Of a stretch of DNA of 64,000 nt, positions 3,119 through 34,057 are shown in pieces; the stretch's first letter is position 1; each line of letters begins with the position of its first letter. Source of the stretch: an uncultured Gammaproteobacteria bacterium (lineage in GTDB: Bacteria; Patescibacteriota; Patescibacteriia; CAIXNZ01); the NCBI GenBank assembly GCA_964590345.1, contig CAZPVP010000002.1:9945-73944 (forward strand). The letters are read 5' to 3'. The position numbers were made by a program, and so were the translations under genes. Below the pieces are notes generated by a model. The model saw nothing but the letters and a program-made list of their open reading frames with translations, was not told the DNA's origin and did not search any database.

Positions 3119-3140
3119 ATGCCTAATCTGGTATAAATAA

Positions 3141-8018: not shown

Positions 8019-8401
8019 CTTTTTGTTTTATTAAGGTTATTAGTTTATTTAGTTATTAGTTATTTCAGCCAAAAGCCGAGCAGCCTTTGGCTGGGATTAT
8101 TGGTTATTAAAAAATGGGTCTCAAAACGACAAAATTACAATAAAATCATCGTCTTGGGACCCATTTTATAAGGCGGTTCCACCCAAGTTCCCTTCGTAGC
8201 TCTAATCAAAATTATAGAATTCTGGTATTTCTTTTTTATGATTATGCAACCAAGAGCGAAGAAGAGCGCTTAATTCCTATCCCCAAAGCTTAGTAAGTGC
8301 CTTACGGACAACTTAAACCAAATATGGCTAAGCGATTGGTCGTCGCTTCAATCACTTTTAGAGATATTTAAATAATAAAATACTGCCTAATTTATGTCAA
8401 G
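8019..8401 (-). promoter_or_regulatory. T-box riboswitch leader of thrS (ACC specifier)
   Basis: The minus-strand RNA contains UGGGUGGAACCGCC, matching the T-box consensus AGGGUGGNACCGCG. Immediately 3' is a long terminator hairpin (GGGUCCCAAGACG...CGUUUUGAGACCC) followed by UUUUUU. The candidate specifier hairpin AAGCGA-cgACCaa-UCGCUU presents the Thr codon ACC followed by a purine. A TTGACA-17-TATTAT promoter sits at the 5' end. Confidence 0.7.
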
Positions 8402-8403
8402 AT

Positions 8404-8841
8404 TCACATTTCTTTTGTAAAAGTAGCTTTTTCTAAAAGCTCATCCATTAAATCCTCGTGTGTTTTTTTAAATTTAGCTTTAATTTTATTAACTGTTTCT
8501 TCCAGCTCTTTTTTTGTATATTTAACATCATCAAAACTTATTAATTCACCATCTTTATCAAATTCAAAAACTTCTTTTTGATCGCCTTTATCATCCAAAT
8601 ATTCTAAAATATAAGCACCATTAGCTAAAACATAAATTCTAGCGCCTTCAAAACCTTTATCAATGACGAATTTTTCTACTTTTTGATAAGAATCACGTTC
8701 AGTTATCTTCTTAACGGCGTCTTCTTCATCATCAATACCCTCGGGAATATCCCAATCTTCCAACTCTATTAACTCCTCCTCTTTCCCTTCCTCGTTGCCC
8801 AATTCAAAAAGATTTTGCTCCCCCATCTCGGTTTTGAACAT
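8404..8841 (-). CDS. hypothetical acidic protein
   Basis: 145 aa ORF, D/E-rich. Confidence 0.45.
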   Translation of the reverse strand: MFKTEMGEQNLFELGNEEGKEEELIELEDWDIPEGIDDEEDAVKKITERDSYQKVEKFVIDKGFEGARIYVLANGAYILEYLDDKGDQKEVFEFDKDGELISFDDVKYTKKELEETVNKIKAKFKKTHEDLMDELLEKATFTKEM

Positions 8842-8850
8842 AAATTAAAA

Positions 8851-10043: not shown

Positions 10044-13000
10044 CTATATTAATTTGACAAACCTAACTTCCGGCACACTGTTCAATTCTTTCTGCAAAAC
10101 TGGATCATCAAAATTGGCGTAAAAATTGGTTTCTATTTTTCTGAATCGTTCATTATCTATAGGCACCGCCAAAAAAATTTTATTTTCACCAGAATTAGCG
10201 CTTAAAATTTTATTAAGCTTAGAAATTGTTTCAGCTGTAACAACTTTTTTGAAAAAAATATAAAAATGTTTAGTTTGCTGCTGCATTTTGACGTTAAGTT
10301 TCTTAAGCTTGGCTTTTAACTCTGAAAGGATTTCTAAACTTAAAGTTTTTACTTCATTACAAATAATTTTATGATCACCATCTTTGTCTGAAACAACACC
10401 GCTTATAATCACCAAGTTATTTTCAACCCATTCTTCCTTAGTTGAATTATAAACACTGGGAAAGACTATTGTTTCAATACTATCATAAGTATCTTCAATC
10501 TTAACAAAAAGCATTATTTCACCTCTTTGAGTTATAACTTTTTTAATACTGTTAATCACTCCAGCAATTCTAATATTGCCTAAGCTCTTAGCTTTTTTAA
10601 CGTTTTGGGTTGTAACTATATAATCTTTTAATTCCTGCTGAAAATCGCTAAAAGGATGATCCGAAATATAAAGTCCCAATAATTCCTTTTCCCAGGCTAA
10701 AGCATTTTTTTTCGCTACCGGCTGGAATTTTTCCAATTGTAAACTATGTTTAGCTTTCTCCTCAGTTAAATCAAATAAACTATCTTGATTTATTTGAATC
10801 TCATTATGAACGGTTTTTATAAAATTTAATAATTTATCTATATTCATTAATATTTCATAACGATCACCAAATTGATCCAAGGCGCCGCTTTTAATTAAAC
10901 TTTCTAAAGATTTTTTATTTAAATCTTTATCCTTAATCCGAATTAAAAAATCCTCCAAAGATTGAAAATGACCATTAGCTTTTCTTTCATGAATAATTGC
11001 TTTAGTTAAATTCAGGCCAACATTTTTAATTGCTGAAAGACCGAATCTAATTCTCGGCTTTCTTTCTTTCAAACTTTCAGCCACAACAGTAAAACGAGTA
11101 AAGCTTTCATTAATATCAGGAGCTAAAACTTCTATGCTCATAGTCCGGCACTCATTAACTTCCAAAGCAATTCGGTCAATATTATCTAAATCAGAAGTTA
11201 ATAATGAAGCCATGAATTCAACTGGATAATTGGCTTTTAAATATGCTGTCTGATAAGCGATCAAGGCGTAACAAGCGGCATGTGAGCGATTAAAACCATA
11301 GCCAGCGAATGGTTCAATAAAAGCAAATACATCTTTGGCTGTTTTTTTATCAATATTATTTTTTAAACAACCTTCGATAAATTTATTTTTCTGTTCAATT
11401 AATAATTTTTTAATTTTTTTGCCAACTGCTTTTCTTAAAACATCCGCTTCAGCCAAAGTAAAACCAGCTAATTCTCGGGCTATTTCCATAAGTTGCTCTT
11501 GATAAATTGCTACTCCATTAGTTTTTGCTAAAATTGGCTTTAATTTTTCATGCAAATAGCTTGGTTTTGTTCGGCCGTGCTTATTATTAATATATTGGGG
11601 GATTAATTCCATCGGTCCTGGCCGATATAAAGCAACCATTGCTATAATATCTTCAAATTCATTAGGCTTTAATTGTTTTAAATAGCGCTTCATCCCGCCT
11701 GATTCTAATTGAAAAACACCAGTAGTCTCGCCTTTTTGCAAAAGTTCAAAAGTTTTTTTATCTTTTAGCGGTAAATTATCTATATCAATTTTAACTCCGT
11801 GAATTTTTTCTACTGTTTCAATAGTATTTTCAATAATGGTTAAATTGCGCAAGCCAAGAAAATCCATTTTCAAAAGGCCCAAATCTTCAATCGGATGTAA
11901 AGAATATTGCGAAACAATGGCATTATCACTACTAGAAGAATACTGTAATGGCACATGATTGGTTAATGGTTCTGGTGTAATCAAAACGCCACAAGCATGA
12001 GTTGAAGCGTGACGGCAAACACCTTCCAATTTCATGGCATTATCAATTAATTCTTTGCAATCTTTATTGTTTTTATATTCGGTCTTTAATTCACTCACTT
12101 TATCTAAGGCGTCTTTCAATTTCATAGACATGGGAATCATCTTGGCAATTTTATCGCAATAACCATAAGGCAAACCCAATGCCCTGCCAACATCGCGAAT
12201 CGCAGCTCGCGCAGCCATTGTGCCAAAAGTAATAATCTGAGAAACATGCCTTTTGCCGTACTTTTCTTCAACATAATGAATAACATCATCACGTCGCATA
12301 TCAGCAAAGTCAGTGTCAATATCAGGCATAGAAATCCGGTCAGGATTCAAAAATCTTTCAAAAATCAAATCATAAGCTAAAGGGCCAATATTGGTAATCT
12401 TGGTTAAATAAGCAACTAAACTGCCAGCCGCCGAACCTCTGCCCGGGCCAACTACAATATCATTATCTTTAGACCAATTTATTAAATCAGCTACAATTAA
12501 AAAATACGAGGCATAACCAGTCTTTTGAATAACTGAAAGCTCGTACTCCAAACGATCTAAAATATCTTTTTTTCTAAATTCCTGAGTTTGTGATTTAGTT
12601 AAAATCTTTTTTTCATCAACTAACCATTCAAAATTGCCCTTTAATTCCCCGCCATAACGCTCTACTAATCCCTCATAACATAATTTTTTCAAATATTGAT
12701 CTGCGTTAAAACCATCCGGCACTTCAAAATGAGGCAGAACATTTTTGCCAAATTCAATCTCAACATTGCATCTATCGGCTATTTTTACGGTATTTTTAAT
12801 TGCTTCAGGATAATCTTTAAAATCTTTAACCATTTGTTTTGTTGTTCTCAAAGAAAATTCATCATTTAGCATGGACAAACGATTTGTCTCTCCTATTTTA
12901 CGATTAGTCTGAATGCACAATAAAATATCCTGGGCCTTTGCGTCTTCAGTATTTAAATAATGGGTATCATTTGTAGCCACAATACCCAAATCGTGTTTTT

Positions 13001-13586
13001 TAGCCAATTCAAATAATTTCTGATTGACAATTGCCTGTTCCGGTTCATTCGGGTGGTGCTGCAATTCCAAATATAAATTATTTTTGCCAAAAATTTTCAA
13101 ATATTTTTCTAAAACAGCTTCTATTTTAGAATCATCTTTATAAGATAATATAGCACTGGGCAGTTCGCCCTTTAAACAAGCAGTCAAGGCTATTAAGCCT
13201 TCTTTATACCTTTCTAAAGTTTCATAATCAATTCTTGGTTTATAATAAAAACCATCCAAATAAGCTTTAGATACTAGTTTTAATAAATTATGATAACCTG
13301 TCTTGTTCTCAGCCAATAAAATCAAATGATAATTATCTTCATCTATTTTTGATCGTTTATTTAAAATACCATAAGGCGCTACATAAGTTTCCACGCCAAT
13401 AATTGGTTTTATGCCGGCTTTTTTAGCTTTTTGGTAAAATTCAATAATACCATACATTGAACCATGGTCGGTTAAAGCCATTGCTGGCATGCCATTAGCC
13501 ACTGCTTTGGCTATTAAATCATCAATTTTAGCCATACCATCAAGTAGGCTGTAATGGCTATGAACATGTAGCGGGACAAATTTCAT
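10044..13586 (-). CDS. dnaE: DNA polymerase III alpha subunit
   Basis: PHP domain at the N-terminus (LHVHSHYSLLDGMAKIDDL). 1180 aa, with polymerase core and OB-fold regions. Confidence 0.95.
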   Translation of the reverse strand: MKFVPLHVHSHYSLLDGMAKIDDLIAKAVANGMPAMALTDHGSMYGIIEFYQKAKKAGIKPIIGVETYVAPYGILNKRSKIDEDNYHLILLAENKTGYHNLLKLVSKAYLDGFYYKPRIDYETLERYKEGLIALTACLKGELPSAILSYKDDSKIEAVLEKYLKIFGKNNLYLELQHHPNEPEQAIVNQKLFELAKKHDLGIVATNDTHYLNTEDAKAQDILLCIQTNRKIGETNRLSMLNDEFSLRTTKQMVKDFKDYPEAIKNTVKIADRCNVEIEFGKNVLPHFEVPDGFNADQYLKKLCYEGLVERYGGELKGNFEWLVDEKKILTKSQTQEFRKKDILDRLEYELSVIQKTGYASYFLIVADLINWSKDNDIVVGPGRGSAAGSLVAYLTKITNIGPLAYDLIFERFLNPDRISMPDIDTDFADMRRDDVIHYVEEKYGKRHVSQIITFGTMAARAAIRDVGRALGLPYGYCDKIAKMIPMSMKLKDALDKVSELKTEYKNNKDCKELIDNAMKLEGVCRHASTHACGVLITPEPLTNHVPLQYSSSSDNAIVSQYSLHPIEDLGLLKMDFLGLRNLTIIENTIETVEKIHGVKIDIDNLPLKDKKTFELLQKGETTGVFQLESGGMKRYLKQLKPNEFEDIIAMVALYRPGPMELIPQYINNKHGRTKPSYLHEKLKPILAKTNGVAIYQEQLMEIARELAGFTLAEADVLRKAVGKKIKKLLIEQKNKFIEGCLKNNIDKKTAKDVFAFIEPFAGYGFNRSHAACYALIAYQTAYLKANYPVEFMASLLTSDLDNIDRIALEVNECRTMSIEVLAPDINESFTRFTVVAESLKERKPRIRFGLSAIKNVGLNLTKAIIHERKANGHFQSLEDFLIRIKDKDLNKKSLESLIKSGALDQFGDRYEILMNIDKLLNFIKTVHNEIQINQDSLFDLTEEKAKHSLQLEKFQPVAKKNALAWEKELLGLYISDHPFSDFQQELKDYIVTTQNVKKAKSLGNIRIAGVINSIKKVITQRGEIMLFVKIEDTYDSIETIVFPSVYNSTKEEWVENNLVIISGVVSDKDGDHKIICNEVKTLSLEILSELKAKLKKLNVKMQQQTKHFYIFFKKVVTAETISKLNKILSANSGENKIFLAVPIDNERFRKIETNFYANFDDPVLQKELNSVPEVRFVKLI

Positions 13587-21888: not shown

Positions 21889-22671
21889 TCAAATTAATTT
21901 TTTGTCAACTGAATTAATTATCTTGCCTTCTTTAACCCATGACCAATATTTTTTAGGGATCAACTTTTGGGCTAATTTAGTATTTTTCCTTTCCGGAATA
22001 AAATTCGCCTGATAAAAAACCTGCCAAAACTTATCAAAATTATTTTTACTAATTTTTAGATCAAATTTGTCTGTTGGAATCTGAAATAACTGATCCTGAT
22101 AAAGAAAGTAAATAATTTTTGGTGTTTTAAGCAGCAAATGATAACCAAAATAACGGTTCCTAAAACCATTAATCACTAAATCTCCGACTTGATTTTCTTC
22201 TTCAAAATAAGCCAGTAAAAATTTTTCTTTACTTCTTTCAATGGGAATAAAACGGATAAAACCCAAAGCCCGATGAACTTCTGACCGAACTTGCCGGGCC
22301 AAGTTAAAAAGGTCATTAGCTTCAGCTGAACTTTTATTGTTTACATAAATTAAACCAAATTTCAAGGCTTGGTGCATTGTTTCAATAATGATTTTGTATT
22401 TAAATTCTTTCCAATGGCGCAAAGCATCATTAATATTATTTTTAAATTGTAAAAAATCCTGATTTCTATTTTTTAACCATTTGACTTGGCCGAATTTTTG
22501 ATTATGATGATCTAAAATTTCCTGCCAGTTTAATCTATCAATATCAACAAAAGTTTCTTCAGCGAATAAATTATCGGCCTCATTTTTGGAACTTAAATAA
22601 TAGCCGGTTAGATTACTATATAAAACCGAGTATAAAATTGATTCAAATTTGTCTTGAAATTTTATTATCAT
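21889..22671 (-). CDS. DUF4130-type partner (TIGR03915-like) of the radical-SAM DNA-repair protein
   Basis: 260 aa. Downstream of the HhH radical SAM gene and co-oriented with it, separated by a 77-bp spacer. This pair is typically SOS-regulated. The family assignment is from architecture and context and was not verified by HMM. Confidence 0.55.
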   Translation of the reverse strand: MIIKFQDKFESILYSVLYSNLTGYYLSSKNEADNLFAEETFVDIDRLNWQEILDHHNQKFGQVKWLKNRNQDFLQFKNNINDALRHWKEFKYKIIIETMHQALKFGLIYVNNKSSAEANDLFNLARQVRSEVHRALGFIRFIPIERSKEKFLLAYFEEENQVGDLVINGFRNRYFGYHLLLKTPKIIYFLYQDQLFQIPTDKFDLKISKNNFDKFWQVFYQANFIPERKNTKLAQKLIPKKYWSWVKEGKIINSVDKKLI

Positions 22672-22748
22672 AAATTTAGATTACAGATTACAGATTTCAG
22701 ATTAACAATGATCTTCCGCAATCTGTAATCTGACATCTGCAATATGAT

Positions 22749-24050
22749 TTAAATTGCCTCTAAACACAAACTCAATTGCAAATTTTCTTCTTTTTGTTCT
22801 GGTCTTAAAAGGCCAGTAGCTATAATACTTTTGTCTGAAAACGGTAAAAACTTGGATCTTTTTTCTAAATTTACTCCGCCAAAATATTGCCCGTTTATTA
22901 AAATAAAATCCCTGGCTCTTTTTAAAACTACGCCCATATTTTTTAATTCTGCTAAACTTTTTATTAAATATCCTTTTCGCAAACTAATAATTCGGCGGGC
23001 GCTTATTTCACCTAAACCAGGGATTCGTAATAAAACATGAAAAGGCGCTTTATTAATTTCAATTGGAAATTTGTCTAAATTTTTCAAAGCCCAAGCCATT
23101 TTGGGATCCAAATCAATTGGCAAATTGCCCTGCTCATCAAAAGGCAATTCCTCAAAAGCAAAACCATAACGTCTAAGCAGCCAGTCCGCCTGATATAGCC
23201 GATTTTCCCTTTTTAAGGGAACTTGATTTTTAATCGGCAAATTATTATCTTGATTGACTGGTACAAAAGCTGAATAATAAACCCGACGTAAATTAATTTT
23301 TTGATAAAGCCAGGTGCTGGTCATTATAATCTCCTGATCGCTCTCGCCAGCCGCGCCAATTACCATTTGCGTAGTCTGGCCAGCCGGAATTTGCCGCCCG
23401 CCATTATCAATAATTTTTTTCATCACCATCATCGGACCGATAATATCATGTTTTAAATCCTTTTCCGGGGAAATCAAAGCTAATTTTTCCATGGTAGGAC
23501 ATTCCAAATTAACGCTCATGCGATCAGCCAATTTGGCTCCTTTTTCAATTAATGTCTGATTAATTCCAGGCAAAACTTTTAAATGAATATAACCATGAAA
23601 CTGGTATTCAAACCGCAAAATTTCTACAACCTTAATCATGCGTTCCATTGTTTCTTCGGCATTTTTATTAATACCTGAAGTTAAAAAAAGACCCTCAACA
23701 TAATTTCTTTTATAAAACTGGATAAATAAATCAGCTAATTCTCTTTCTGCAAAACAGGTGCGCGGCCTGTCATTGCTTTGGCGATTCACACAATACAAAC
23801 AATTATTTATGCATTGGTTAGTTAATAAAACCTTAAACAAAGAAACACAGCGACCATCAGGCGTAAAAGAATGACAAACGCCCATGCGCGTCACATTACC
23901 CATGCCTTTTACGCCCCAGCTTTTGGGCGTGCAACCAGTTGAAGCGCAAACATCATATTTGGCTGCTTCAGTTAAAATTTTTAATTTATCAATAGTTTCC
24001 ATTACATTTAAAATTAGCTTCGGCTGGACAATGTAACCATAAAAGCCCAT
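22749..24050 (-). CDS. putative DNA modification/repair radical SAM protein (TIGR03916-like)
   Basis: CINNCLYC CX3CX2C radical SAM motif. The C-terminal HhH-like region (LLRIPGLGEISARRII) is typical of this family. Confidence 0.75.
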   Translation of the reverse strand: MGFYGYIVQPKLILNVMETIDKLKILTEAAKYDVCASTGCTPKSWGVKGMGNVTRMGVCHSFTPDGRCVSLFKVLLTNQCINNCLYCVNRQSNDRPRTCFAERELADLFIQFYKRNYVEGLFLTSGINKNAEETMERMIKVVEILRFEYQFHGYIHLKVLPGINQTLIEKGAKLADRMSVNLECPTMEKLALISPEKDLKHDIIGPMMVMKKIIDNGGRQIPAGQTTQMVIGAAGESDQEIIMTSTWLYQKINLRRVYYSAFVPVNQDNNLPIKNQVPLKRENRLYQADWLLRRYGFAFEELPFDEQGNLPIDLDPKMAWALKNLDKFPIEINKAPFHVLLRIPGLGEISARRIISLRKGYLIKSLAELKNMGVVLKRARDFILINGQYFGGVNLEKRSKFLPFSDKSIIATGLLRPEQKEENLQLSLCLEAI

Positions 24051-24246
24051 AATCTTTTAAAGTCTTTGCCCAGCCGAACTCTGGCCTGTTAGTTTAGCTG
24101 CCTATTTTTAAAAAAATAGGTTTATTTATAATTATTTAATTTTCAAGCTCGGATCAAGCGAATAAATTAAGGAAAAAAACTTACAAACAACCCGGCGATA
24201 AATCATTTTTTGTTTTCTTGACATAATAATATTTGTTAATTAGTTT

Positions 24247-24280
24247 ATTAGCCTTCGCTAACCGTAGTTAGCTTCGGCTA
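24247..24280. promoter_or_regulatory. two tandem TTAGC-N4-GCTAA palindromes (candidate LexA operators)
   Basis: TTAGCCTTCGCTAA and TTAGCTTCGGCTAA are separated by 6 bp. They sit between lexA and the SOS-type rSAM operon, right after a TTGACA-17-TAGTTT plus-strand promoter-like site. Confidence 0.4.
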
Positions 24281-24529
24281 ACAAAGGTTAGTTAATTAGT
24301 ATATTGGGCACAAATTATATTTCAACTTAACATTTGTATGTTTGTATTAAATTTGTATTTTCGTAGGAGTTAATTTATAATAATAAAAAGAGAGACCTTG
24401 TTTATCCAATAAGTGTTTCTCTGTCGCTAAACAGAATTCACCCCAAGCTTCGGGGTGAGTTTTGTTTTAGAAGATGCGTTATCTAAAACTTAACCCGCCC
24501 CAAAAGCAGAGTGTATTTAAAATTAATTA

Positions 24530-25141
24530 TTAAACAACGGCAAATTTGCGAATAACAGCCCGAACAACTCCCTGAACCATCACATTTTTAGCAAAAATAG
24601 GCTTCATGGTAGAATTGGCCGGCTGCAGCCTGACGCGATTGGCTTCTTTGTAAAACTTTTTTAACGTCGCAAAAGTATTATCCAGCAAAGCGACTACCAC
24701 CTGGCCGTTTTGCGGATTTTCATTTTCTTCAACAATCACATAATCGCCATCGTAAATCCCCTCTTCAATCATTGATTCTCCTTTAACTTTTAAAACATAA
24801 GACTTGGCTTCATCTTTAACAAAATCTGCCGGCACAGCAATTTTCTCCTTATTTTCCACGGCCTCAATAGGTTCACCAGCCGTAATTAACCCGGCCAAGC
24901 TCAAAAAAATCGCGTCTGCCCTTTCATTTTCAACAATTTCTATTGATCTGGCTTCATTAGGATCTGTTTTTAAATAACCTTTGTTTTGCAAAGCTTGGAC
25001 ATGCTCACAAACTGTGGCTGTTGAAGACAAGCCAAAATGCTGGCCTATCTCCCGATAACTTGGGGCATAACCATTATCTTCGATAAATTGATTTATAAAA
25101 TCTAATATTTCTTTTTGGCGTTTTGTTAAATTGTCACCCAT
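24530..25141 (-). CDS. lexA: LexA repressor
   Basis: N-terminal wHTH (LTKRQKEILDFI...GYAPSYREIG) and a C-terminal S24 peptidase domain (VKGESMIEEGIYDGDYVIV). Confidence 0.85.
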   Translation of the reverse strand: MGDNLTKRQKEILDFINQFIEDNGYAPSYREIGQHFGLSSTATVCEHVQALQNKGYLKTDPNEARSIEIVENERADAIFLSLAGLITAGEPIEAVENKEKIAVPADFVKDEAKSYVLKVKGESMIEEGIYDGDYVIVEENENPQNGQVVVALLDNTFATLKKFYKEANRVRLQPANSTMKPIFAKNVMVQGVVRAVIRKFAVV

Positions 25142-25176
25142 AAGGTTTAAGGTTTAAGATTTAAGATGTAAGATTA

Positions 25177-25542
25177 TTATTTTAAAGATTTAATCCAACC
25201 GTTTAATATTCTGCCCGTTTCATTTGCCAATTCTGACAATTGAATAAATTTTTCTTTTTTAATATATTTTAATTCGTAACTTAATAGTATTTGATACTTT
25301 AATTCCTCTAATGAGGCTTCTGCATAATAATAAAAATTAAATTTGTCTTTTCCTCTTCTTTTAAATCCTTCTGCAATATTTGAAGGCACTGAAATCGCAC
25401 ATCTTCTTATCTGGGATACTAAACCATATTTCTCATGTTCTGGAAAAGCAACAGTTGCTTTATAAACTAATAAAACTAATTTGTGAGATTTTTCCCAAGC
25501 TTTTAAATCATTGATAGTCCTTATAGTTTTAACTTTTACCAT
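25177..25542 (-). CDS. four-helix-bundle protein (23S rRNA intervening-sequence protein family, TIGR02436-like)
   Basis: 121 aa. The pattern ...AISVPSNIAEG...YAEASLEELKYQ is typical of this family. Confidence 0.65.
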   Translation of the reverse strand: MVKVKTIRTINDLKAWEKSHKLVLLVYKATVAFPEHEKYGLVSQIRRCAISVPSNIAEGFKRRGKDKFNFYYYAEASLEELKYQILLSYELKYIKKEKFIQLSELANETGRILNGWIKSLK

Positions 25543-25793
25543 AATTTTAAACTTAGTCCTTAAACCTTAAATCTTAAATCTCCTCACAACCCAAACAAAA
25601 ACCGAATAATCTTATACTTCCATAATAACCGAACAAAATCCGAATGTCAAGGGTGGTTATCCACAACATAGCAAAAACTACTTTTATTTATTGAAAAAAA
25701 ATCCGCCCATTTAAGTGCGGATCATTATCCCCTTTCGCCTACAAAATAAAGGCCTTTGGTGCGTTGAGTATTGTAGTATTGGGACATAATATT

Positions 25794-26143
25794 TTAAATC
25801 TCAAAATGTTTTTTTAAATATTGCTTAATCTGATTCAGAACAGATTGATCAGCTCGACCAATTTTTTTAATTAAACGGGAATAATCTAATGATGCTAAGC
25901 AATAAACTTTAATTATAGAATCAGATTTTAAGCAATTAGAAGAATCAGCAGCAATCAAAATATCATCAGCTAATTTATTTTCCCTAACTGAAGTTAAAGG
26001 GATAACTGTCACTAAATTAGATTTACATAACTGATCATTTGCCTCTATGACAATTGCCGGACGTCTGCCTTGATATTCATGCCCTACACTGGGATCAAAA
26101 TCAGTCCAAATAATATCGCCTTACTTTAATTTACCTTTTAAAT
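25794..26143 (-). pseudogene. MazF/PemK-family toxin gene with an in-frame TAA at codon 9
   Basis: The ATG overlaps the antitoxin stop (ATGA) and is followed by MNLKGKLK then TAA. Downstream, in the same frame, is GDIIWTDFDPSVGHEYQGRRPAIVIEAND...VTVIPLTS, which matches the MazF core. No canonical start follows the stop. Confidence 0.6.
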
Positions 26144-26989
26144 TCATAAATTTTCATAATAATCATATTCTTCTTTTGATATCGGACCTAATTCTTTCAA
26201 TATATCTTTGCCTGCTGCGTTTTGCCACTCAGCCCAGTGGTCTGCTTGAGCATAAGGAGCTGTGCGATCATAAACCAAATAATAAGGAATTATTTCTTTT
26301 TCTTTGGCAATTTTCCATGGGGTATCTTCATGCACATAATCTTCAATCTGCTTGGCATTCATATCTGACAAATTATTTATAACTTTATCAATCAATTTAA
26401 TTTCTTCAGCTTTTTTAAAAATAGACAAATCAGGATCAACCAAAGAAATATATCTTTTTTGTGGCATGCCATGATATGTCTGACTAATAATTTTTAATTC
26501 ATCATTTTTAACCATTTGTTCAATAACCGAATTATAATCTTTTAAGCACGGTACCGGACCGAACTGCAATTTGATATAATTCATGTTTGTTACTGGCTTT
26601 CCCAAAATTTCAAAAGCATCAAAATCAATAAAATAAAGCAGTTTATACAAAACAGTCTCACCCAAATTTGGTTTACCGCCGCACTTTTGTAAAATATACA
26701 AAATCACATTTTTCAATTTATATTGATCAAACTTGAATACTTGACTCTGTTTTTTATTAGCCTTTTTTTCAACTTTATTTTTTTCATCAATCAGCAAATA
26801 ATCAACTGAAGTTCCAAATACTTGGGCAATTTTAGCCAGCTCCAAAGAATCAATACTTCTTTTACTGGCTTCAATTTGCGCTACTGCTACACGAGAAAGG
26901 CCGATTTTTGAGGCTAATTCAGCCTGACTCATATCAAAATCAAGCCTTAATTTTTTAATTTTTTGGGCCAATTTTTTTTGACTTAACAT
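26144..26989 (-). CDS. antitoxin: N-terminal XRE-type HTH fused to a DUF4065/Panacea domain
   Basis: HTH (LAQKIKKLRLDFDMSQAELASKIGLSRVAV). The C-terminal region (LYKLLYFIDFDAFEILGKP) is DUF4065-like. The gene is translationally coupled to the downstream MazF-like ORF. Confidence 0.6.
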   Translation of the reverse strand: MLSQKKLAQKIKKLRLDFDMSQAELASKIGLSRVAVAQIEASKRSIDSLELAKIAQVFGTSVDYLLIDEKNKVEKKANKKQSQVFKFDQYKLKNVILYILQKCGGKPNLGETVLYKLLYFIDFDAFEILGKPVTNMNYIKLQFGPVPCLKDYNSVIEQMVKNDELKIISQTYHGMPQKRYISLVDPDLSIFKKAEEIKLIDKVINNLSDMNAKQIEDYVHEDTPWKIAKEKEIIPYYLVYDRTAPYAQADHWAEWQNAAGKDILKELGPISKEEYDYYENL

Positions 26990-27159: not shown

Positions 27160-27191
27160 AAAGCGCTCGGGCTTTCAGCCCGAGCGCTTAT
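27160..27191 (-). terminator. GC-rich hairpin terminator downstream of the Cys-motif/TcmP-like gene pair
   Basis: Perfect 13-bp stem AAGCGCTCGGGCT / AGCCCGAGCGCTT with a 3-nt loop, in AT-rich context. Confidence 0.5.
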
Positions 27192-27216: not shown

Positions 27217-28071
27217 TTAAGCATAACATCTTAAAAATTCCCTACATATTTCCGGTGTCGTAATAGAAACTTTAAAATTATTTTCCTGCAAATCCACAGT
27301 ATGTTCTTTTATGTGATATTCTATATTTCTTTCTAAACAAAATTTAATTACTTTATAAGTTAATTCATTATAATAAGACTTGTAATTAGAAAAATCACTG
27401 GTATTACTATTATAGTTCCATTTGCCAAAAACAATTTTGTCCACAAATGAAACTTTTTCCAAAATATCCTCAATATTTTGCTTTATATTAAATTTCTCTA
27501 ACATATTAGGCGTAGGATATGGTTCTATACTTACCCAAGTTTTCAGGTCATTATTATGCAAATTCTTCAAAGATTTTATTCTTTCTCTAACTTTTGCCGC
27601 ATATGGCTCATGTATTTTTTGAAATTTATCTGATAAAGAAATTATTGTAGAACCATACTCATTTATATCTTTATAAATATTTTTATTAAACAAATCTTTG
27701 GGATAAACACCTTTACTAATTGTTATTACTTTAATATTATCTTTATTCAATCTTTTGATTACATTTAAAGTCAAATTGTGAATCTCGGGTTGTTTATACA
27801 TAAAGGGGTCAGTAGCAAAAGACAGATAAACTGATTTAATCTGATTTTTATATTTGGGAATTTCTTTTTCTAATAATTCCAATGCATTGACAACAATTTT
27901 AGGCTGGCGCCATTCATTATAATTTTTTATAACACCGCATCTTTTTTTAAGCATCATAGCATAGCAAGGATAAGTACAGCCATGCACGCAACCTTCAGCA
28001 TGATTAATACAAAAATCAGCGTATTCAACACCGCTCTTGTAAAGCAAGGTTTTCCTTGTTATTTTTTGCAT
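27217..28071 (-). CDS. Cys-motif protein (CVHGCTYPCYA; radical-SAM-like/SplB-like)
   Basis: N-terminal GCVHGCTYPCYAM with Cx3Cx3C spacing and a CYA ending, resembling DNA-repair photolyase-like and three-Cys-motif families. It is the adjacent partner of the TcmP-like gene. Confidence 0.4.
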   Translation of the reverse strand: MQKITRKTLLYKSGVEYADFCINHAEGCVHGCTYPCYAMMLKKRCGVIKNYNEWRQPKIVVNALELLEKEIPKYKNQIKSVYLSFATDPFMYKQPEIHNLTLNVIKRLNKDNIKVITISKGVYPKDLFNKNIYKDINEYGSTIISLSDKFQKIHEPYAAKVRERIKSLKNLHNNDLKTWVSIEPYPTPNMLEKFNIKQNIEDILEKVSFVDKIVFGKWNYNSNTSDFSNYKSYYNELTYKVIKFCLERNIEYHIKEHTVDLQENNFKVSITTPEICREFLRCYA

Positions 28072-28110
28072 GGGGTTTTATCTATAAAAATCTATATAGT
28101 CGCAAATATA

Positions 28111-29034
28111 TTAAATATCAAATGAGCCCTGCAACATTTTGTCTTGCTCTTTCTTCGGTAAACATTGGAAAAGAGTACCATCCAAAGTAACTTTTTTATA
28201 AATATCCTCAATTATGCTTTTTGCTCCAGTATTTCTAGAAAGAAAAATAAGATAATATTTATTCCTACCCTTATTATAACAAATATCAATTATTTTAGCT
28301 CCAAGTTCGTATTTTTTAGCCACTTTATCATTATAATCAGCAAATATATTCAAATATATTTTTAAATTTTCTTTTTCTTCGCTAGTTAAATTTTTCCAAT
28401 CCTCTCCAAAAAAATCTTGAATTCTTCTTAAATTGCCAATAGCCATTTTTTGTATATCAATAGGTAAATTTTTTTTGCATTTCTTCCCGAAAGCAAGACA
28501 TCTTTCAACTCCCTTACAAATATAATTTATTAAAAATTCCTTTGCGACATTTGGGATATTAAGCATTTTCACTAGCATTTCTCTATAAATATTTATACCA
28601 GCAGGATCTATAAAAAAGAATATAGGAGCTTTACCAGATATAATCGGCAAAATATCATCTATTTTTTTATTTATGTCTCCGTTAAAACATTTAACATAAA
28701 AACCCCTTTTAATATATGGGCTAACAAATTTTTCTAAATCTTGAAAAGCATTTTTATCTTTTTCAACAAAAATACATTTTAAATCTTTATTATATTTTTC
28801 CTTGACCAACTTGGCTATTTCTAAAGCAATTAAGGGCGAACCAAGCACTGAATTTTTAACGCCCTCATTATTATACTTTCCTCTACCTACGAAACAATCA
28901 ATAAAATACATTTCTTGACACCATTTTTGTGCTGCTAATATTTTTGCCCATGCGGATAAATAATCATTTAAAATTTTAAGTTTTGTTTTTGTCTGTGTCT
29001 TATTAGTTATATCCCAAAAATCTTTTTTCTGCAT
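28111..29034 (-). CDS. TcmP-like partner protein (three-Cys-motif partner family resemblance)
   Basis: 307 aa with an N-terminal ...TKLKILNDYLSAWAKILA pattern. The assignment is from recalled family characteristics and needs HMM confirmation. Confidence 0.35.
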   Translation of the reverse strand: MQKKDFWDITNKTQTKTKLKILNDYLSAWAKILAAQKWCQEMYFIDCFVGRGKYNNEGVKNSVLGSPLIALEIAKLVKEKYNKDLKCIFVEKDKNAFQDLEKFVSPYIKRGFYVKCFNGDINKKIDDILPIISGKAPIFFFIDPAGINIYREMLVKMLNIPNVAKEFLINYICKGVERCLAFGKKCKKNLPIDIQKMAIGNLRRIQDFFGEDWKNLTSEEKENLKIYLNIFADYNDKVAKKYELGAKIIDICYNKGRNKYYLIFLSRNTGAKSIIEDIYKKVTLDGTLFQCLPKKEQDKMLQGSFDI

Positions 29035-29088: not shown

Positions 29089-29226
29089 TACAAGCAAACT
29101 TATCCACAGACTCACTCTCCCTCAATTATTTTAACATCCTCTTCCCCCAACCCATACAACTTATACACTGCTTGATCTATCTCATAATCCACTGCCCTTA
29201 TCCTATCCGCATTTTTCTCGCGGGAT
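29089..29226 (-). pseudogene. orphan 3'-terminal fragment of a Type IIG/RM gene
   Basis: It translates to KTPQSREKNADRIRAVDYEIDQAVYKLYGLGEEDVKIIEGE-stop. That is about 75% identical at DNA level to the true C-terminus of the Type IIG gene at 31037-31160 (…KTSESREKNKTKIEAVDYEIDQEVYKLYNLTPEEIKVVEGK-stop). No upstream ORF exists. Confidence 0.55.
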
Positions 29227-29239
29227 TGAGGGGTTTTAT

Positions 29240-29989
29240 TTAATTTTTAATAGTATTTATTATCGATTTATAAATAATATACAATCCTATTATAAAAACA
29301 CATATTCCCCATATTAACATTAAAGCACCCCCCATATTTATTTTTTCTTTAGTTATGAATCCAATATCTGTTAGGGCTAAAAATACTACATTGATTATGA
29401 TAAATAAAATATTTGTGCTAAAAACAAATTTTAAATTATTTTTAAAATTAAATAATTCATCAAAAAAATCATTATATCTTTTTATATTTCTAAAAATTTC
29501 ATTAGCATAATATGCATATAAATTAGATTTTCCTGCTCGTAAATCTATCAGGTGTGCCTCACTATAGCCACATGCATCCTTTAATGCATTTTCAAGATTA
29601 ATTATTTTTATTTGATTAGCTTGTATTTTTGTCTTTATATCATGACCAATTTTTTTTGAATTTTCATAAATATCATATACTTGCTGATATCTATCTTTAT
29701 ATTCAAATAAAGCTAAATATATTTTAACAAGTCTATTATAATAATCCTCTTTTTCTTTTATTAATTTTCCATAAATCAAAACAAAAAAAGTTGCGCTCAA
29801 AGCAATTATCGCACCTAAAGTTTGTGCCATAGCACTAAATAAATATCTAAAAGTATCAACATTGATTATCTGATAGCAATAAACGATAAAAGCTAAAAGA
29901 ATAATTGCAATAATAGATATGAAAATTATTATTGCCACAAAGAATCCTCGTTTAAATTCCTTACTCATATGATAAAAAATCCAGTTCAT
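29240..29989 (-). CDS. hypothetical membrane protein (N-terminal TM plus two C-terminal TMs)
   Basis: 249 aa. It sits between the RM-gene fragment and the 347-aa gene. Its RBS lies within the conserved ...ATTGAGGGGAG junction sequence. Confidence 0.45.
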   Translation of the reverse strand: MNWIFYHMSKEFKRGFFVAIIIFISIIAIILLAFIVYCYQIINVDTFRYLFSAMAQTLGAIIALSATFFVLIYGKLIKEKEDYYNRLVKIYLALFEYKDRYQQVYDIYENSKKIGHDIKTKIQANQIKIINLENALKDACGYSEAHLIDLRAGKSNLYAYYANEIFRNIKRYNDFFDELFNFKNNLKFVFSTNILFIIINVVFLALTDIGFITKEKINMGGALMLIWGICVFIIGLYIIYKSIINTIKN

Positions 29990-30006: not shown

Positions 30007-31050
30007 TTATTTTAATCTTTTTACCCGCCCGAAAATTCTATAACCCGAAACAGTTCCCGTATCTTTTATAAAATTCAGATGATGCCTGATAACAAATTGC
30101 AGATTATCCATGCATTTTATGGCTTGTTTTTTGTAGGCATCTAACTCATAAAGATCGTGCTTAGGATGAACCAAATTGCTTGCAGTGGTTGAGATTTCGT
30201 TTACCTTTTTTGCCGCAATTTTACTTATTGGATACTTACCTCGAAATAGAGAATAGCTACGACAAGTTTCCGCCAAATGCTCTATGCTTTTTAGTTTTTT
30301 GTTATCTTTAGCTTGCTTGTAGATATCAAATCCCCTCCCAACTTTTAGGAGAATTCGTATAAGTGCCTGCTCTGTGGCTGTACGACAAACAACAATAGAG
30401 GAATAGTAATACCCGAGGACATAAAGTTCCTGTGCATGGGAGAAAAGATCGAAATAATTACCATCGTAGACCATCACACCTCGATACCTTTGTGACACTG
30501 TTATGTGTCTTTTCCACATTGCCGGTAATTCTTTCTCAAGCCCCGTTCTCCATCCCTGCAGGAATTCACTTTTTTCTTGCCTACGCATAGTCAATGGTAG
30601 ATAACCGCCACCACGAACTTTATGCGCAGTAGTGATTTTAAATTTATTTTCAAGGTCTTTTATTTTTTTAAAATCAGCATGCCAAATCCACCAATCTTTA
30701 TTAAAACGTACTACTAAAATTGTAGCCGATTTCTTACCCAGAGTTGGATCATGCCACTTAACATTTTTAATTTCGTGCAAATCTACATTGATGGGTTTGC
30801 CAGCATTATTCGGATTAAGCTTCCTGTTTTTAAACTCAAGCATTACCTGTACCGCGTTGTCGAGAAAAATACGATGACTTCCGTCGGATAAAATTTCAAT
30901 TCCGGCGACACTAAAATCTTTCAGACCCAGTCGTTTTAATTCAGGCTCAATATATTCTTTTATGGCTTTATTGACTGCCTGGCCAAAGCTTTGATTCTTT
31001 TTTACGTTTTCGTCTAGAATAAAGATTGCCATATTTTTATTTCCCCTCAA
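30007..31050 (-). CDS. hypothetical protein, compositionally distinct (higher GC)
   Basis: 347 aa. Its start overlaps the Type IIG stop by 14 bp. No recognisable motif. Confidence 0.45.
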   Translation of the reverse strand: MRGNKNMAIFILDENVKKNQSFGQAVNKAIKEYIEPELKRLGLKDFSVAGIEILSDGSHRIFLDNAVQVMLEFKNRKLNPNNAGKPINVDLHEIKNVKWHDPTLGKKSATILVVRFNKDWWIWHADFKKIKDLENKFKITTAHKVRGGGYLPLTMRRQEKSEFLQGWRTGLEKELPAMWKRHITVSQRYRGVMVYDGNYFDLFSHAQELYVLGYYYSSIVVCRTATEQALIRILLKVGRGFDIYKQAKDNKKLKSIEHLAETCRSYSLFRGKYPISKIAAKKVNEISTTASNLVHPKHDLYELDAYKKQAIKCMDNLQFVIRHHLNFIKDTGTVSGYRIFGRVKRLK

Positions 31051-34000
31051 CCACCTTAATCTCCTCAGGCGTCAAATTATACAACTTATAAACCTCCTGA
31101 TCAATTTCATAATCCACTGCCTCAATCTTTGTCTTGTTTTTCTCACGGGATTCAGAGGTTTTATTTAATTTAAGCATTTCATCAACAAGTTTGATTATAT
31201 TTTTACTTATCTTTTCATCAGGATCCTTGATAATTGGTAATTCCTTAAGGTATTCTATTGTTATTTGTGTTGTCAATTTCATACCTAGATTATAGGTGTA
31301 TTCATAATAAAAATTCATTAATTCTGAATTAAGAATCGCTAAAATTAGTTTTGGATTATAATCTTTTATACCAAAAATTGAATATACTGTGTTAAAAGCC
31401 AAAACATCTTTATCTTGTGTGACAAATGTACCCCCGGGTCTAGTCGCTATCCTTTTAATAAATATTCTATCTTTATTAAATGCCTCTCTTTTATAATCAA
31501 CACCTTTTAGAGACTCCTGAATATAATAAAAATCATTAATATAATATTTTTTCAATTCTTTACCCGAAATACATTTTATTTTATATTTATCTGTTTCTAT
31601 ATCAGAACTAATACATATACCTTTTTTATTTTTAATTAATCTCTTGCAATTCTTGCAATAATTACTAGCTTTTAGATTATAGTACTTCTCGCTCAATTCA
31701 TTATATACTCCACAACTATCACATTTTATCAAATTTGTTTTTTGACCTAATTCTATACCTCGTTTAATATCTGCTATTTCTTTAAGTTTTACACTAACCT
31801 TGTTAATTGTATTTAATAAATCTTGTTTCTCTTTGGTAATATCAAAAGAAAAAGCTTGAACTGGATTTTTTGAAAAAATATTCTGATTAATTGCGTGACT
31901 GGATACTAAATTACCATCAAAAATCTTTTCAATTATTGTCAGTGCTTTGGATTTAGATTTTGAGATTATGGGGCAGATACAATCAGATGCTACCCCAGGA
32001 AATTTACCGAAATCAATAAATTTAAATAATTGCCAATCATCTAAAATTTTACTTCTTATTATTTTATAAGAAGTATTTTTTATAAAAACTTTTGGAATTA
32101 ATATCCCCATTAATCCATTTGGATTTGTAATATTCACTGATTCTAAAACAAACGGTGCGAAAAGGTTTAAATTTTTAGTATCGATAATATAAGCATTGTT
32201 AATATAATCGGTAATTTCAATAGGCATTTTAGAACTCCATGGTGGATTACCGATCACCGCATCAAATCCGCCGTCCTTAAAAATCTCGCAAAAAGCCACT
32301 GAATAATTAAAAGGCTTTATTTTTTCCAAGTTTTTAAAATATTGTTTCAGGCCATCGTTTAACTTGCCATTAATCAATGTTTCAAATTTTTTAATTTCAA
32401 CCAGTAAATCTTTTTTCTCATCATTGGCTTCAGCTTGATAAAATTTTTCTTTCAGTTCGGTTAATTTAGCAATTTCTGTTTTATAATCATCAAACAAATT
32501 AAGATTCTGTTCTTTTTCTTTAAGCTTTTCTCCGCCAATTAAAGAATTACCGCAACGGATATTTAAATTTAAATTAGGCAAAAGATGCTTACCTTTTAAT
32601 TCTGCAGGGTTAACGCCTTCCAAAGCTTTGATCATTAAATTAAGCTTGGTAATTTCAATCGCTTTAGGGTCAAGATCAACACCAAAAAGATTTTTTTGCA
32701 AAACTTTTTTCCTAAAATCAAAACTCAAAAGCCCGCCTTCTTTGGAAACTTCCAAATATTTATTATAAATCTCTTCAAAAGCGCGAATTAAAAAAGAACC
32801 AGAACCACATGCCGGATCCAAAACTTTTATTTTTTCTACATCTTCAACTGTTTTGCATTTTTTTAATAATTCCCCAACAGTATTTTTAACTATGTAATCA
32901 ACAATATAAGCGGGCGTATAATAAATGCCTTGGGATTTACGTTTTGATTTTTGCTTTTGCTTTAGAGTGTCTTCCCTCTTAATATTGCCTTTGGCAATTT
33001 CACCTAAATAATTCTCATAAACTTCGCCGATTATATGGACACTTAATTTGCTAAAATCAATTTTTTTAAGCTCATTAATAATCTTTATAATTATTTCATC
33101 ATTAATTTTCAATTCATCAGCATCATTAGGTTCAAAAAGTTCAGTGTTGAATTTTTCGTCCATTGCTCTAAAAATTGACTTTAATTCTTCGTATTTTAAC
33201 TGCTTGGACTGCAAGACTGAATCCAAATAATCCTGTGAAATAATATTCCTGTCGCTGCATAAATCAATAAAAATCAAACGATCAATAATTTTCTGGGACA
33301 TTAATTCTGAATCATACTTAGGATAATTTTTAATAATAAAAGCACGCAATTTGGCGCGCCAATTTTTAATTTTATTAAAAAAATCTTTTTTAATCTTATC
33401 CTGTTCAAGATCCAATTGTTCAGGATAATAAATCGGATCAGAATCAATAATGCCGTTTTTTCTAGTTAATTCTGATTTTGATAATTGGCTTAAAAAATTC
33501 AAGCCTTCATCTGACAATAAATCAATATAATATCTTTTATCAGCATTATCCCATAATAAATCATGAAACGCATATTTTCTTTCTTTATATAAACGTCCGT
33601 GCTGGACACTGTATAAACGCCACTCAATAAAATTGGTTAAAACTCCCCAATACAAACCTTCACCGTGGCAATAATTAAATAATTGCTGGGTAAACGGCTT
33701 GTTGCCATAAGAGCCGTCAAGTTTGTCTTTACTAGAAGCATCTTTAGATTCAATCACTAAAAGCTTAGAGCCGGTATCGGATTTTAAAATAATATCAGGA
33801 TTTTTACCGGTTTTAACATCCTGTGCAGTATCCAAAACCCAATTAGAACTATCCCAGCCTAATATTTTAAGCAATTCAATAGTAAAACTGGTTTGAATGT
33901 CTTGTTCGCGTTTTGACCAGCCGTCCTGCGTCTTAAATTTATCAACCAATGCCTGAATCTGCTTTTTTAATTTCGCCTGTTCCAATTCAAGATTTGGCGT

Positions 34001-34057
34001 GTTTAATATTATTTTCTTTTTATCCATAAAGATAGTTGTAATAACCACTATTGACAA
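31037..34057 (-). CDS. Type IIG restriction-modification enzyme (MmeI/Eco57I-like: PD-ExK nuclease plus gamma-class N6-adenine MTase plus TRD)
   Basis: PD...ExK nuclease motif at the N-terminus (NPDIILKSDTGSKLLVIESKD). MTase motif I VLDPACGSGSFL and motif IV VIGNPPWSS. A Zn-ribbon CDSCG...CKNC lies in the C-terminal target-recognition region. 1006 aa. Confidence 0.85.
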   Translation of the reverse strand: MSIVVITTIFMDKKKIILNTPNLELEQAKLKKQIQALVDKFKTQDGWSKREQDIQTSFTIELLKILGWDSSNWVLDTAQDVKTGKNPDIILKSDTGSKLLVIESKDASSKDKLDGSYGNKPFTQQLFNYCHGEGLYWGVLTNFIEWRLYSVQHGRLYKERKYAFHDLLWDNADKRYYIDLLSDEGLNFLSQLSKSELTRKNGIIDSDPIYYPEQLDLEQDKIKKDFFNKIKNWRAKLRAFIIKNYPKYDSELMSQKIIDRLIFIDLCSDRNIISQDYLDSVLQSKQLKYEELKSIFRAMDEKFNTELFEPNDADELKINDEIIIKIINELKKIDFSKLSVHIIGEVYENYLGEIAKGNIKREDTLKQKQKSKRKSQGIYYTPAYIVDYIVKNTVGELLKKCKTVEDVEKIKVLDPACGSGSFLIRAFEEIYNKYLEVSKEGGLLSFDFRKKVLQKNLFGVDLDPKAIEITKLNLMIKALEGVNPAELKGKHLLPNLNLNIRCGNSLIGGEKLKEKEQNLNLFDDYKTEIAKLTELKEKFYQAEANDEKKDLLVEIKKFETLINGKLNDGLKQYFKNLEKIKPFNYSVAFCEIFKDGGFDAVIGNPPWSSKMPIEITDYINNAYIIDTKNLNLFAPFVLESVNITNPNGLMGILIPKVFIKNTSYKIIRSKILDDWQLFKFIDFGKFPGVASDCICPIISKSKSKALTIIEKIFDGNLVSSHAINQNIFSKNPVQAFSFDITKEKQDLLNTINKVSVKLKEIADIKRGIELGQKTNLIKCDSCGVYNELSEKYYNLKASNYCKNCKRLIKNKKGICISSDIETDKYKIKCISGKELKKYYINDFYYIQESLKGVDYKREAFNKDRIFIKRIATRPGGTFVTQDKDVLAFNTVYSIFGIKDYNPKLILAILNSELMNFYYEYTYNLGMKLTTQITIEYLKELPIIKDPDEKISKNIIKLVDEMLKLNKTSESREKNKTKIEAVDYEIDQEVYKLYNLTPEEIKVVEGK

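Follow-up and report, generated by a model that had tools for sequence, protein, structure and literature searches.

What does a radical S-adenosylmethionine (SAM)-like protein with atypically spaced motif cysteines do beside a protein of the TcmP family, in a region of restriction-modification (RM) and toxin-antitoxin genes? We address this question for a pair of genes on a 64,000-nt stretch of contig CAZPVP010000002.1 (assembly GCA_964590345.1, positions 9,945 to 73,944) from an uncultured bacterium that GTDB places in the Patescibacteriota. The whole 64-kb stretch is called the window below, and the two genes are called tcmP and rSAM (Table 1). Both open reading frames (ORFs) were present, on the minus strand, as an initial annotation, made from the letters of the sequence, had described them with respect to coordinates and Cys motif. 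We give about even weight to the full explanation developed here, that the locus is a two-gene operon, tcmP-rSAM, encoding one enzyme complex that acts as a SAM-dependent, DNA-directed conflict module.

The rSAM protein is, on the evidence of profile matches and a predicted structure, a genuine member of the radical-SAM superfamily, in the branch of spore photoproduct lyase (SPL) and DUF5131. It matched Pfam PF04055 (Radical_SAM) with 31.1 bits, above the gathering threshold of 29.5, and its homologs and fusions scored 30-45 bits on the same model. An AlphaFold2 model built on 24 homologs had a predicted local distance difference test score (pLDDT) of 82.2, and a Foldseek comparison of this predicted structure with the Protein Data Bank (PDB) placed SPL closest (TM-score 0.58). 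Radical-SAM enzymes made up 21 of its 22 strongest matches, and the matches included SPL, SuiB, BlsE, NifB, TigE, BioB, LipA, PFL-AE, DesII and SkfB. At RadicalSAM.org, megacluster 5 holds DUF5131 and SPL as adjacent subclusters (PMC9477430), and the window enzyme evidently falls in this part of the superfamily. A database search returned 2185 homologs of the enzyme. The fold identities of rSAM and TcmP (below) are, in our judgement, close to certain.

The enzyme does not belong to any of the named families with which it was compared. Its best NCBIfam matches were PA0069 (NF033668, 49 bits), Rv2578c (NF038135, 29.5 bits) and mobile pair B (TIGR04470, 28 bits), all far under cutoffs of 360-430; these families, which bear the label 'DNA repair photolyase', share with it a GC.H.C.YCYA-type motif and a TDP...EP...EP core, but they have canonical CX3CX2C spacing and are not linked to TcmP. 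No SPL family model was among the NCBIfam matches, a profile search of the PDB returned no SPL at E <= 1, and profile searches of rSAM and of TcmP against PDB sequences gave matches at the level of chance. The likeness to SplB (PDB 4FHC, 4K9R), which acts on a flipped-out DNA lesion, is therefore one of fold, a partial TIM barrel aligned over about 293 columns; SplB is 12-13% identical, has 340 aa as against 284 and differs in Cys spacing, and the window enzyme has or needs a separate partner protein. Membership of DUF5131 (PF07505, Gp37-Gp68) was rejected: the score was 19.1 bits against a gathering threshold of 28.9 and covered the N-terminal third, BLASTP similarity was likewise confined to the N-terminus, and the Cys spacing differs from that of the DUF5131 protein gp42 of Gordonia phage Fairfaxidum (342 bits in Pfam; GC-x6-C-x2-CYA). 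The window enzyme also lacks the GGESG motif of gp42.

The atypical spacing is, from sequence comparison, the canonical CX3CX2C motif plus one Pro before the third Cys, in a bona fide radical-SAM lineage. The motif GCVHGCTYPCYA occupies residues 27-38 of the 284-aa protein and reads C28-x3-C32-T-Y-P-C36, that is, CX3CX3C and not CX3CX2C. We read the difference as a one-Pro insertion because relatives with the canonical motif exist and because one of them, from a plasmid of Natronosalvus caseinilyticus (GCRHGCKFCYV), aligned with the family profile (hhalign probability 98.5%, E 2e-15) and left a gap precisely where the Pro stands. This Natronosalvus enzyme is encoded beside a TcmP gene on the megaplasmid of strain KZCA101 (NZ_CP100395.1; enzyme WP_312912731, TcmP WP_312912732; 27% identity) and thus forms a comparable pair in a cultured host, but there the radical-SAM gene comes before the TcmP gene, the spacing is canonical and the enzyme is 349 aa long. 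A published mention of 'CX3CX3C' for NifB (PMC9692996) was found not to be relevant to this motif.

The Pro form is conserved. The pattern C..GC..PCYA was invariant in the 24-sequence alignment, and the Pro form was found in all 120 of the close homologs listed and in 87 of the 88 family ORFs of the loci fetched for the pairing analysis (below); the one remaining ORF is truncated. When 1.84 billion cluster representatives were searched with the family profile, 191 representatives of the family were obtained at E <= 1e-30; the top 150 comprised 77 with the Pro form, 23 with a canonical C.H.C.YCY motif and 50 motif-less fragments, so the canonical motif accounted for 23 of the 100 with a readable motif. 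In a rough neighbor-joining tree, a core clade of 94 sequences was entirely of the Pro form, and canonical and Pro forms interleaved in the divergent branches, such that the Pro forms did not make up a single clean clade. The initial description of the protein as radical-SAM-like with atypical spacing thus holds, from the Pfam match, the SPL-nearest model and the one-Pro insertion, and so does the expectation that the Cys motif is conserved among homologs. Separately, the window enzyme has a five-residue insertion, MLEKF, at residues 190-194 (approximately 27490-27504) that was absent from the 23 homologs aligned with it and that lies in the loop after the conserved EPYPTPN motif.

TcmP has, on sequence motifs and a predicted structure, an RlmJ-like methyltransferase fold with an intact SAM-binding motif I and without the Pro-aromatic pair of amino-methyltransferases. 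The 307-aa protein matched TIGR04474 over profile positions 2-262 of 263 with 134.7 bits (cutoff 53), in agreement with its initial assignment to the TcmP family; no Pfam model matched it. All top Foldseek matches of its AlphaFold2 model (pLDDT 78.9) in the PDB were class I SAM methyltransferases, with the plantazolicin methyltransferase BamL first and with E. coli RlmJ, the DUF519 protein LPL1258, Trm1 and TYW2 also present, and a search of a library of viral structures (BFVD) returned generic class I methyltransferases. The model combines a Rossmann-like fold with motif I (D46-x-F-x-G50-x-G52), the two features of that class, and also has G65-S66-P-L-I-A. At motif IV, the pattern (D/N/S)-P-P-(Y/F/W) of amino-methyltransferases is absent, and D143-P144 is followed by x-G (DPAG, DPDG or DPWG). 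Invariant or nearly invariant positions in 58 diverse TcmPs were K18, D46, F48, G50, G52, G65/S66, D143-P144, R178 and Y260.

Among the top fold matches of TcmP is RlmJ, the DUF519 enzyme of E. coli that makes m6A2030 in 23S rRNA. Three motifs are colinear between K-12 RlmJ and TcmP (YLDTHAGAGRY and FIDCFVGRGKY, PGSPLIA and LGSPLIA, LILIDP and FFFIDP), and both have an invariant Lys in the N-terminal helix, K18 in RlmJ, which we take to be important there. RlmJ differs in having DPPY where TcmP has DPxG, in an insert of about 45 residues between motif I and the GSP motif that is missing from TcmP, and in being a housekeeping enzyme, whereas TcmP is accessory and hypervariable. Longer TcmPs bear a C-terminal GMT-like winged helix-turn-helix; the TcmP of the window, of the short subtype of about 307 aa, does not.

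The two genes belong together. Using the rSAM enzyme as the query, we fetched 80 loci from species-representative genomes (52-68% identity to the window enzyme). The bacterial carriers were Patescibacteria, Omnitrophota, Nitrospirota, Thermodesulfovibrionia, Planctomycetota, Actinomycetota, Gammaproteobacteria and Clostridia, and the archaeal carriers were Methanosarcinales, Nanoarchaeota and Woesearchaeota. In 58 of the 68 loci that had at least 900 nt of upstream sequence, a TcmP gene, detected with an iterated hidden Markov model (HMM), lay directly upstream of rSAM, always on the same strand and with intergenic gaps of -50 to +115 nt; NCBIfam TIGR04474 confirmed the upstream partners in three loci (112-225 bits). 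Natural TcmP-rSAM fusions were also found, of 588 aa (locus L059), 634 aa (P0166) and 592 aa (P0171), together with fragments of more. Chance adjacency was rejected on the basis of the 58 loci and the fusions, and we think it highly probable that tcmP and rSAM form an obligate two-protein unit.

Two of the loci have unusual arrangements. The Actinomycetota contig of L059 carries an unfused TcmP-rSAM pair (8001-8846) in addition to the 588-aa fusion (11459-13225), 2.6 kb apart and on opposite strands. In P0168 (1002 aa; L096:3891-6899), the rSAM enzyme is fused to an N-terminal region of about 740 residues that may be another kind of partner domain. The first 732 aa had no match in the PDB, in Pfam or to the TcmP HMM, and the region contains the methyltransferase-like strings VACLPGEEALE and INLDYQG.

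The partner varies far more than the enzyme. Across the 58 distinct pairs the median pairwise identity was 62% for rSAM and 25% for TcmP (Spearman 0.03 between the two), where the choice of loci by similarity to rSAM puts a floor under, and so inflates, the apparent conservation of the enzyme, a point that counts against the reading. When two rSAM proteins were at least 80% identical, the identity of their TcmPs was 28% at the median and went down to 22%. So wide a difference cannot come from a faster clock alone, and for this reason the comparison of sequences indicates that tcmP alleles have been exchanged upstream of a strongly constrained rSAM gene.

Judged by sequence profiles, the pair is a variant of the PADLOC candidate systems PDC-M30 and PDC-M41. 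Like them it is a cassette of two genes, of which one encodes an A subunit of the TcmP family, and it lies among RM or defence genes; the TcmP of the window scored 72 bits on PDC-M30A (E 1e-20) and 54 bits on PDC-M41A (E 5e-15). The rSAM subunit had no PADLOC match at E <= 0.01, so the two subunits that define PDC-M30 and PDC-M41 were not both recognized. The Fairfaxidum protein gp42 scored 370 bits on PDC-M41B and 354 bits on PDC-M30B, and PDC-M30 and PDC-M41 are therefore TcmP + DUF5131 pairs. Their B subunits come from the same radical-SAM branch as the window enzyme but have C-x6-C-x2-C and about 250 aa, as against C-x3-C-x3-C, 284 aa and an SPL-like fold. Both systems are candidates, nominated because they occur inside BREX, DISARM or Type I RM loci (bioRxiv 10.1101/2024.01.29.577857).

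These comparisons qualify the initial description of the partner as a three-Cys protein. The window TcmP is encoded, across a 39-nt gap, beside a protein with three motif cysteines, as expected of its family; that family is defined by three-Cys partners of the DUF5131 type, and the partner here belongs to another radical-SAM family. The three cysteines beside TcmP therefore stand and the classical family does not, so the pair is a partner-swapped variant. The single radical-SAM defence system that turned up in the literature, Ophion, was set aside because its architecture differs. TcmP is mentioned in the literature beside the Hna defence gene of Sinorhizobium, and in Fairfaxidum, a temperate Gordonia phage, a TcmP + DUF5131 pair lies beside the immunity repressor.

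The genes around the pair in other genomes include RM and defence functions. The 127 immediate flanking genes included N6_Mtase (7), MmeI-type methyltransferases (3), ResIII (3), GmrSD (2), AlbA_2 (3), PIN (2), NYN (2) and PLD (2); there was no conserved third gene among them. The reading of the pair as an independent defence or DNA-modification unit, which the initial annotation had put forward, fits these context data. As to a role of the pair in conflict or defence, we regard the case as evenly balanced.

A methyltransferase-fold protein is a recurring neighbour of rSAM, also where TcmP is missing. Solo or canonical-motif relatives lie directly behind N6/N4 DNA methyltransferases in L024 and L095: in L024, which lacks TcmP, the end of a CcrM-like DNA methyltransferase gene overlaps the rSAM start, and in L095 the start of a canonical-motif relative overlaps the methyltransferase stop, within a phage-like cluster that encodes one C5 and two N6/N4 methyltransferases, PAPS (3'-phosphoadenosine-5'-phosphosulfate) reductase and RusA. 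L071, also without TcmP, has two DNA methyltransferases nearby, and at other loci without TcmP the rSAM gene follows toxin-antitoxin, AlbA_2/Schlafen-type, NYN or nucleotidyltransferase genes. Mainly because of these recurring methyltransferase-fold neighbours, we favour DNA bases as the substrate, and we lean slightly towards a nucleic-acid or DNA substrate over anything else.

The same neighbours would suit a hypermodification writer that serves mobile elements. On this account the methyltransferase-fold subunit would select the base and rSAM would install a non-methyl or C-linked modification, for anti-restriction or self-marking and not for host defence, and the overlaps with methyltransferase genes in L024 and in the phage-like cluster of L095 agree with it, as do a canonical-motif relative whose integrative element also carries AAA_25 and two integrases, the pair on the haloarchaeal megaplasmid, and the frequency of TcmP homologs on plasmids of Streptomyces and other actinomycetes. 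The enzyme itself is rare on such elements: it matched 13 of 50,697 phage records, one of them closely (50% identity), the plasmids yielded distant haloarchaeal radical-SAM proteins, and most loci are on chromosomal contigs of metagenome-assembled genomes (MAGs). The mechanism overlaps that of the conflict module and differs mainly in the beneficiary. We consider such a writer unlikely.

Genes of the LexA type near the pair raise the question of DNA repair under SOS control. An SPL-like enzyme could directly reverse a DNA lesion that TcmP recognises and whose base it flips out, in lineages that are mostly anaerobic and live in the dark. The best structural match of rSAM, SPL, is a radical-SAM enzyme of DNA repair, its homologs are labelled 'DNA repair photolyase' by their sources, and the carriers are mostly groundwater or sediment members of the candidate phyla radiation (CPR) and DPANN, with Omnitrophota and Nitrospirota. 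LexA or S24 proteins are linked to the pair at several loci: in L037 the gene immediately before the pair, in the same orientation, encodes a true LexA (210 bits), a LexA-like gene takes this place in L010, and a divergent LexA lies in L014. In L033 (6276-6851; a Planctomycetota MAG), a repressor that joins a MAD1/excisionase-type helix-turn-helix (HTH) to a LexA-type S24 self-cleavage domain lies 4 nt upstream of TcmP; its sequence hints at DNA-damage-responsive control of the pair, and with the MADS model MAD1, which has a cutoff of 80, its HTH reached 77 bits. The window, too, has a lexA gene near rSAM, adjoining a putative repair pair (TIGR03916/TIGR03915; Table 1).

Repair accounts poorly for the variation of the partner. 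A fixed lesion would need no hypervariable, swapped partner, and the patchy distribution extends across domains at 55-68% identity. The pair occurs in RM and toxin-antitoxin islands and in mobile elements, and its DUF5131 version has been found inside BREX, DISARM and Type I RM systems. Only about 5 of 68 loci had LexA or S24 genes next to the pair, an arrangement just as characteristic of prophage or defence regulation, and a search for Gram-positive-type SOS boxes (GAAC-N4-GTTC) gave fewer matches than expected by chance. A repair function thus has, in our view, a small chance of being correct. As an observation apart, the LexA of L014 is part of an uninterrupted 521-aa ORF (2119-3684, minus strand; a Patescibacteria MAG) that joins LexA (residues 1-202, 182 bits) to a Dcm-type C5 DNA methyltransferase (residues 214-516, 343 bits), divergent beside the TcmP-rSAM pair.

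Two further functions are suggested by the structural matches. A housekeeping modification of rRNA or tRNA, comparable to that by RlmN/Cfr or TYW1/TYW2, would accord with RlmJ as the closest solved fold of TcmP, with the matches of TcmP to Trm1 and TYW2, and with TYW1 and RlmN among the weaker structural matches of rSAM. The patchy phyletic pattern, the hypervariable partner and the RM, toxin-antitoxin and mobile-element neighbours do not suit such a role, no linkage to ribosomal or tRNA genes was seen at the loci examined, and we rate it as very improbable. The tailoring of a ribosomally synthesized and post-translationally modified peptide (RiPP) or of a small molecule is brought to mind by SuiB, SkfB and TigE among the matches of rSAM and by BamL as the top match of TcmP. 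These matches are generic to both folds; rSAM has no SPASM or auxiliary-cluster domain, and the flanks hold no conserved precursor peptide, transporter, protease or any third gene. We see next to no likelihood of this function.

For the conflict module, which we prefer, the following mechanism is consistent with the data. TcmP would be an exchangeable target-recognition subunit that binds nucleic acid, most likely DNA, and would flip a nucleotide into its methyltransferase-like pocket. With a putative [4Fe-4S] cluster, the conserved rSAM subunit would cleave SAM and direct radical chemistry at the flipped nucleotide, by which a modification would be written or the nucleotide damaged. The pair may then act in conflicts with phages or mobile DNA, as a defence or by marking DNA. 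This particular division of labour, with recognition by TcmP and chemistry by rSAM, is tentative, and we think it less likely than not. A stronger version is a long shot: the pair would be a novel type of immune effector ('radical restriction'), in which rSAM would damage or irreversibly mark invading DNA and would be aimed by an exchangeable TcmP, derived from a methyltransferase but no longer capable of methyl transfer. Exchange of TcmP would then parallel that of the specificity subunits of Type I RM, and radical chemistry would take the part of the nuclease. If this version were true, its logic would extend to the whole TcmP + DUF5131 (PDC-M30/M41) group.

Several observations weigh against the conflict module. 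The link between TcmP and RlmJ comes from the fold search and three short motifs, because the TcmP profile aligned with a single RlmJ sequence at an hhalign probability of 4%; the TM-scores of TcmP with RlmJ and DUF519 structures were modest (0.41-0.51). RlmJ acts on RNA, so an RNA substrate is compatible with the fold. About 15% of the loci (10 of 68) have no TcmP, and the enzyme can therefore work alone or with other partners. Many flanking genes are housekeeping genes, such as those for MreB and tRNA synthetases, and the RM and defence figures given above are raw counts without a genome-wide baseline. The pair encodes no nuclease or other obvious effector. In the literature, TcmP occurred as an annotation label, and we found no functional study of the TcmP or DUF5131 families; the initial characterization of such pairs as annotated but uncharacterised agrees with this.

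Within the window, the pair lies in a run of minus-strand genes (Table 1). In the direction of transcription, the order is the Type IIG gene, two unknown ORFs, a remnant of a Type IIG 3' end, tcmP, rSAM and a hairpin, followed by the gene for an antitoxin with HTH and Panacea domains, an interrupted gene for a MazF-like toxin, an Avd-like gene, lexA, the TIGR03916/TIGR03915 pair, yvcK and guaA.

Table 1. Features in and around the tcmP-rSAM pair; positions are those of the window.
Feature	Position	Strand	Remarks
Type IIG restriction-modification enzyme	31037-34057	minus	1006 aa; PADLOC REase_MTase_IIG 267 bits; outside the module
Type IIG 3'-end remnant	29119-29246	minus	directly upstream of tcmP; direct repeat of 31044-31171
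tcmP	28111-29034	minus	307 aa; upstream gene of the pair; TIGR04474 match
Spacer between tcmP and rSAM	28072-28110	minus	39 nt; consistent with an operon
rSAM (radical-SAM gene)	27217-28071	minus	284 aa; downstream gene; conserved subunit of the pair
CX3CX3C motif codons	27958-27993	minus	G27-C28-V-H-G-C32-T-Y-P35-C36-Y-A38, with the inserted Pro
GC-rich hairpin	27161-27189	minus	13-bp stem, 3-nt loop; 28 nt past the rSAM stop codon
HTH + Panacea/SocA antitoxin	26144-26989	minus	SocA_Panacea 69.8 bits, HTH_3 53.1 bits; outside the module
MazF/PemK-like toxin gene	~25794-26146	minus	PemK match on a 72-aa ORF; in-frame TAA at codon 9
Avd-like/'23S rRNA intervening-sequence' four-helix-bundle gene	25177-25542		TIGR02436 116 bits
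lexA, then TIGR03916/TIGR03915 pair	21889-25141	minus	lexA genuine, 209 bits; three genes downstream of rSAM

The hairpin is likely the terminator of the two-gene unit. By sequence folding, the region has -26 kcal/mol (z = -3.4 relative to shuffles). The GC-rich terminator that the initial annotation had assigned to the pair is thus present as a hairpin, seen by reading and folding the sequence; its weak T-tract caused a consensus scan for terminators to pass over it. The placement of the pair between a toxin-antitoxin module and a Type IIG RM gene was likewise correct in part: the toxin-antitoxin genes are on one side, although the toxin gene has a premature TAA, and the Type IIG gene is two ORFs away. 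The toxin gene begins ATG AAT TTA AAA GGT AAA TTA AAG TAA GGC GAT ATT, and the TAA probably means that the MazF-like toxin is inactive or that its translation begins from a non-standard start.

The two ORFs between the Type IIG gene and the pair are bracketed by a direct repeat. Its copies, at the end of the Type IIG gene and in the remnant, span 128 nt and are 74% identical without gaps and 81% identical with gaps; the translated remnant ends ...AVDYEIDQAVYKLYGLGEEDVKIIEGE*, which resembles the Type IIG C-terminus. The bracketed ORFs (30007-31050 and 29240-29989) encode proteins of 347 aa and 249 aa, the second a multi-pass membrane protein, neither with a family match. From the sequence, recombination at the RM gene's 3' end seems to have inserted the two ORFs as one cassette, and before that insertion tcmP appears to have directly followed the Type IIG gene. 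The two proteins could be a sensor and membrane-effector defence pair. In a close relative (TcmP 80% identical), a Type IIG gene is followed by three small genes, one of them for an RNase H, then by the pair and by an FkbM methyltransferase gene.

Further features lie downstream. The Avd-like gene is flanked by 25-nt inverted repeats (25141-25165 and 25552-25576) with TAAGGTTTAAG-type units that are 84% complementary, which suggests that gene and repeats are a small mobile or structured element. The TIGR03916 radical-SAM protein (488 bits) and its TIGR03915-like partner (89.8 bits, below the cutoff of 112) make up another 'DNA modification/repair' pair with a radical-SAM member in the window, unrelated to tcmP-rSAM and separated from lexA by 479 nt (24051-24529) with repeated GC-richer segments. 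An Rfam search of 24-36 kb gave no match, and no tRNA genes were found in the whole window. At about 50-52 kb the GC content is markedly higher (0.41-0.45), with overlapping ORFs on both strands.

The variant bears on a large family of gene pairs. Pairs of TcmP and a three-Cys protein are annotated in thousands of genomes and are candidates for defence, and no member has a known activity. The pair described here ties TcmP unambiguously to the radical-SAM superfamily and extends the range of TcmP partners over CX6CX2C, CX3CX2C and CX3CX3C enzymes. The variant has a wide distribution among CPR bacteria and DPANN archaea and is missed by current defence-finding tools, as in PADLOC, where the B subunit had no match. 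Tractable relatives exist in cultured hosts, on haloarchaeal plasmids and in Gordonia phages, and the one-Pro insertion would be a natural test of the spacing change that the cluster loop of a radical-SAM enzyme tolerates. The design, a conserved engine with a swappable adaptor, predicts where specificity resides, and if the enzyme does act on DNA, radical chemistry would join the repertoire of DNA modification and restriction.

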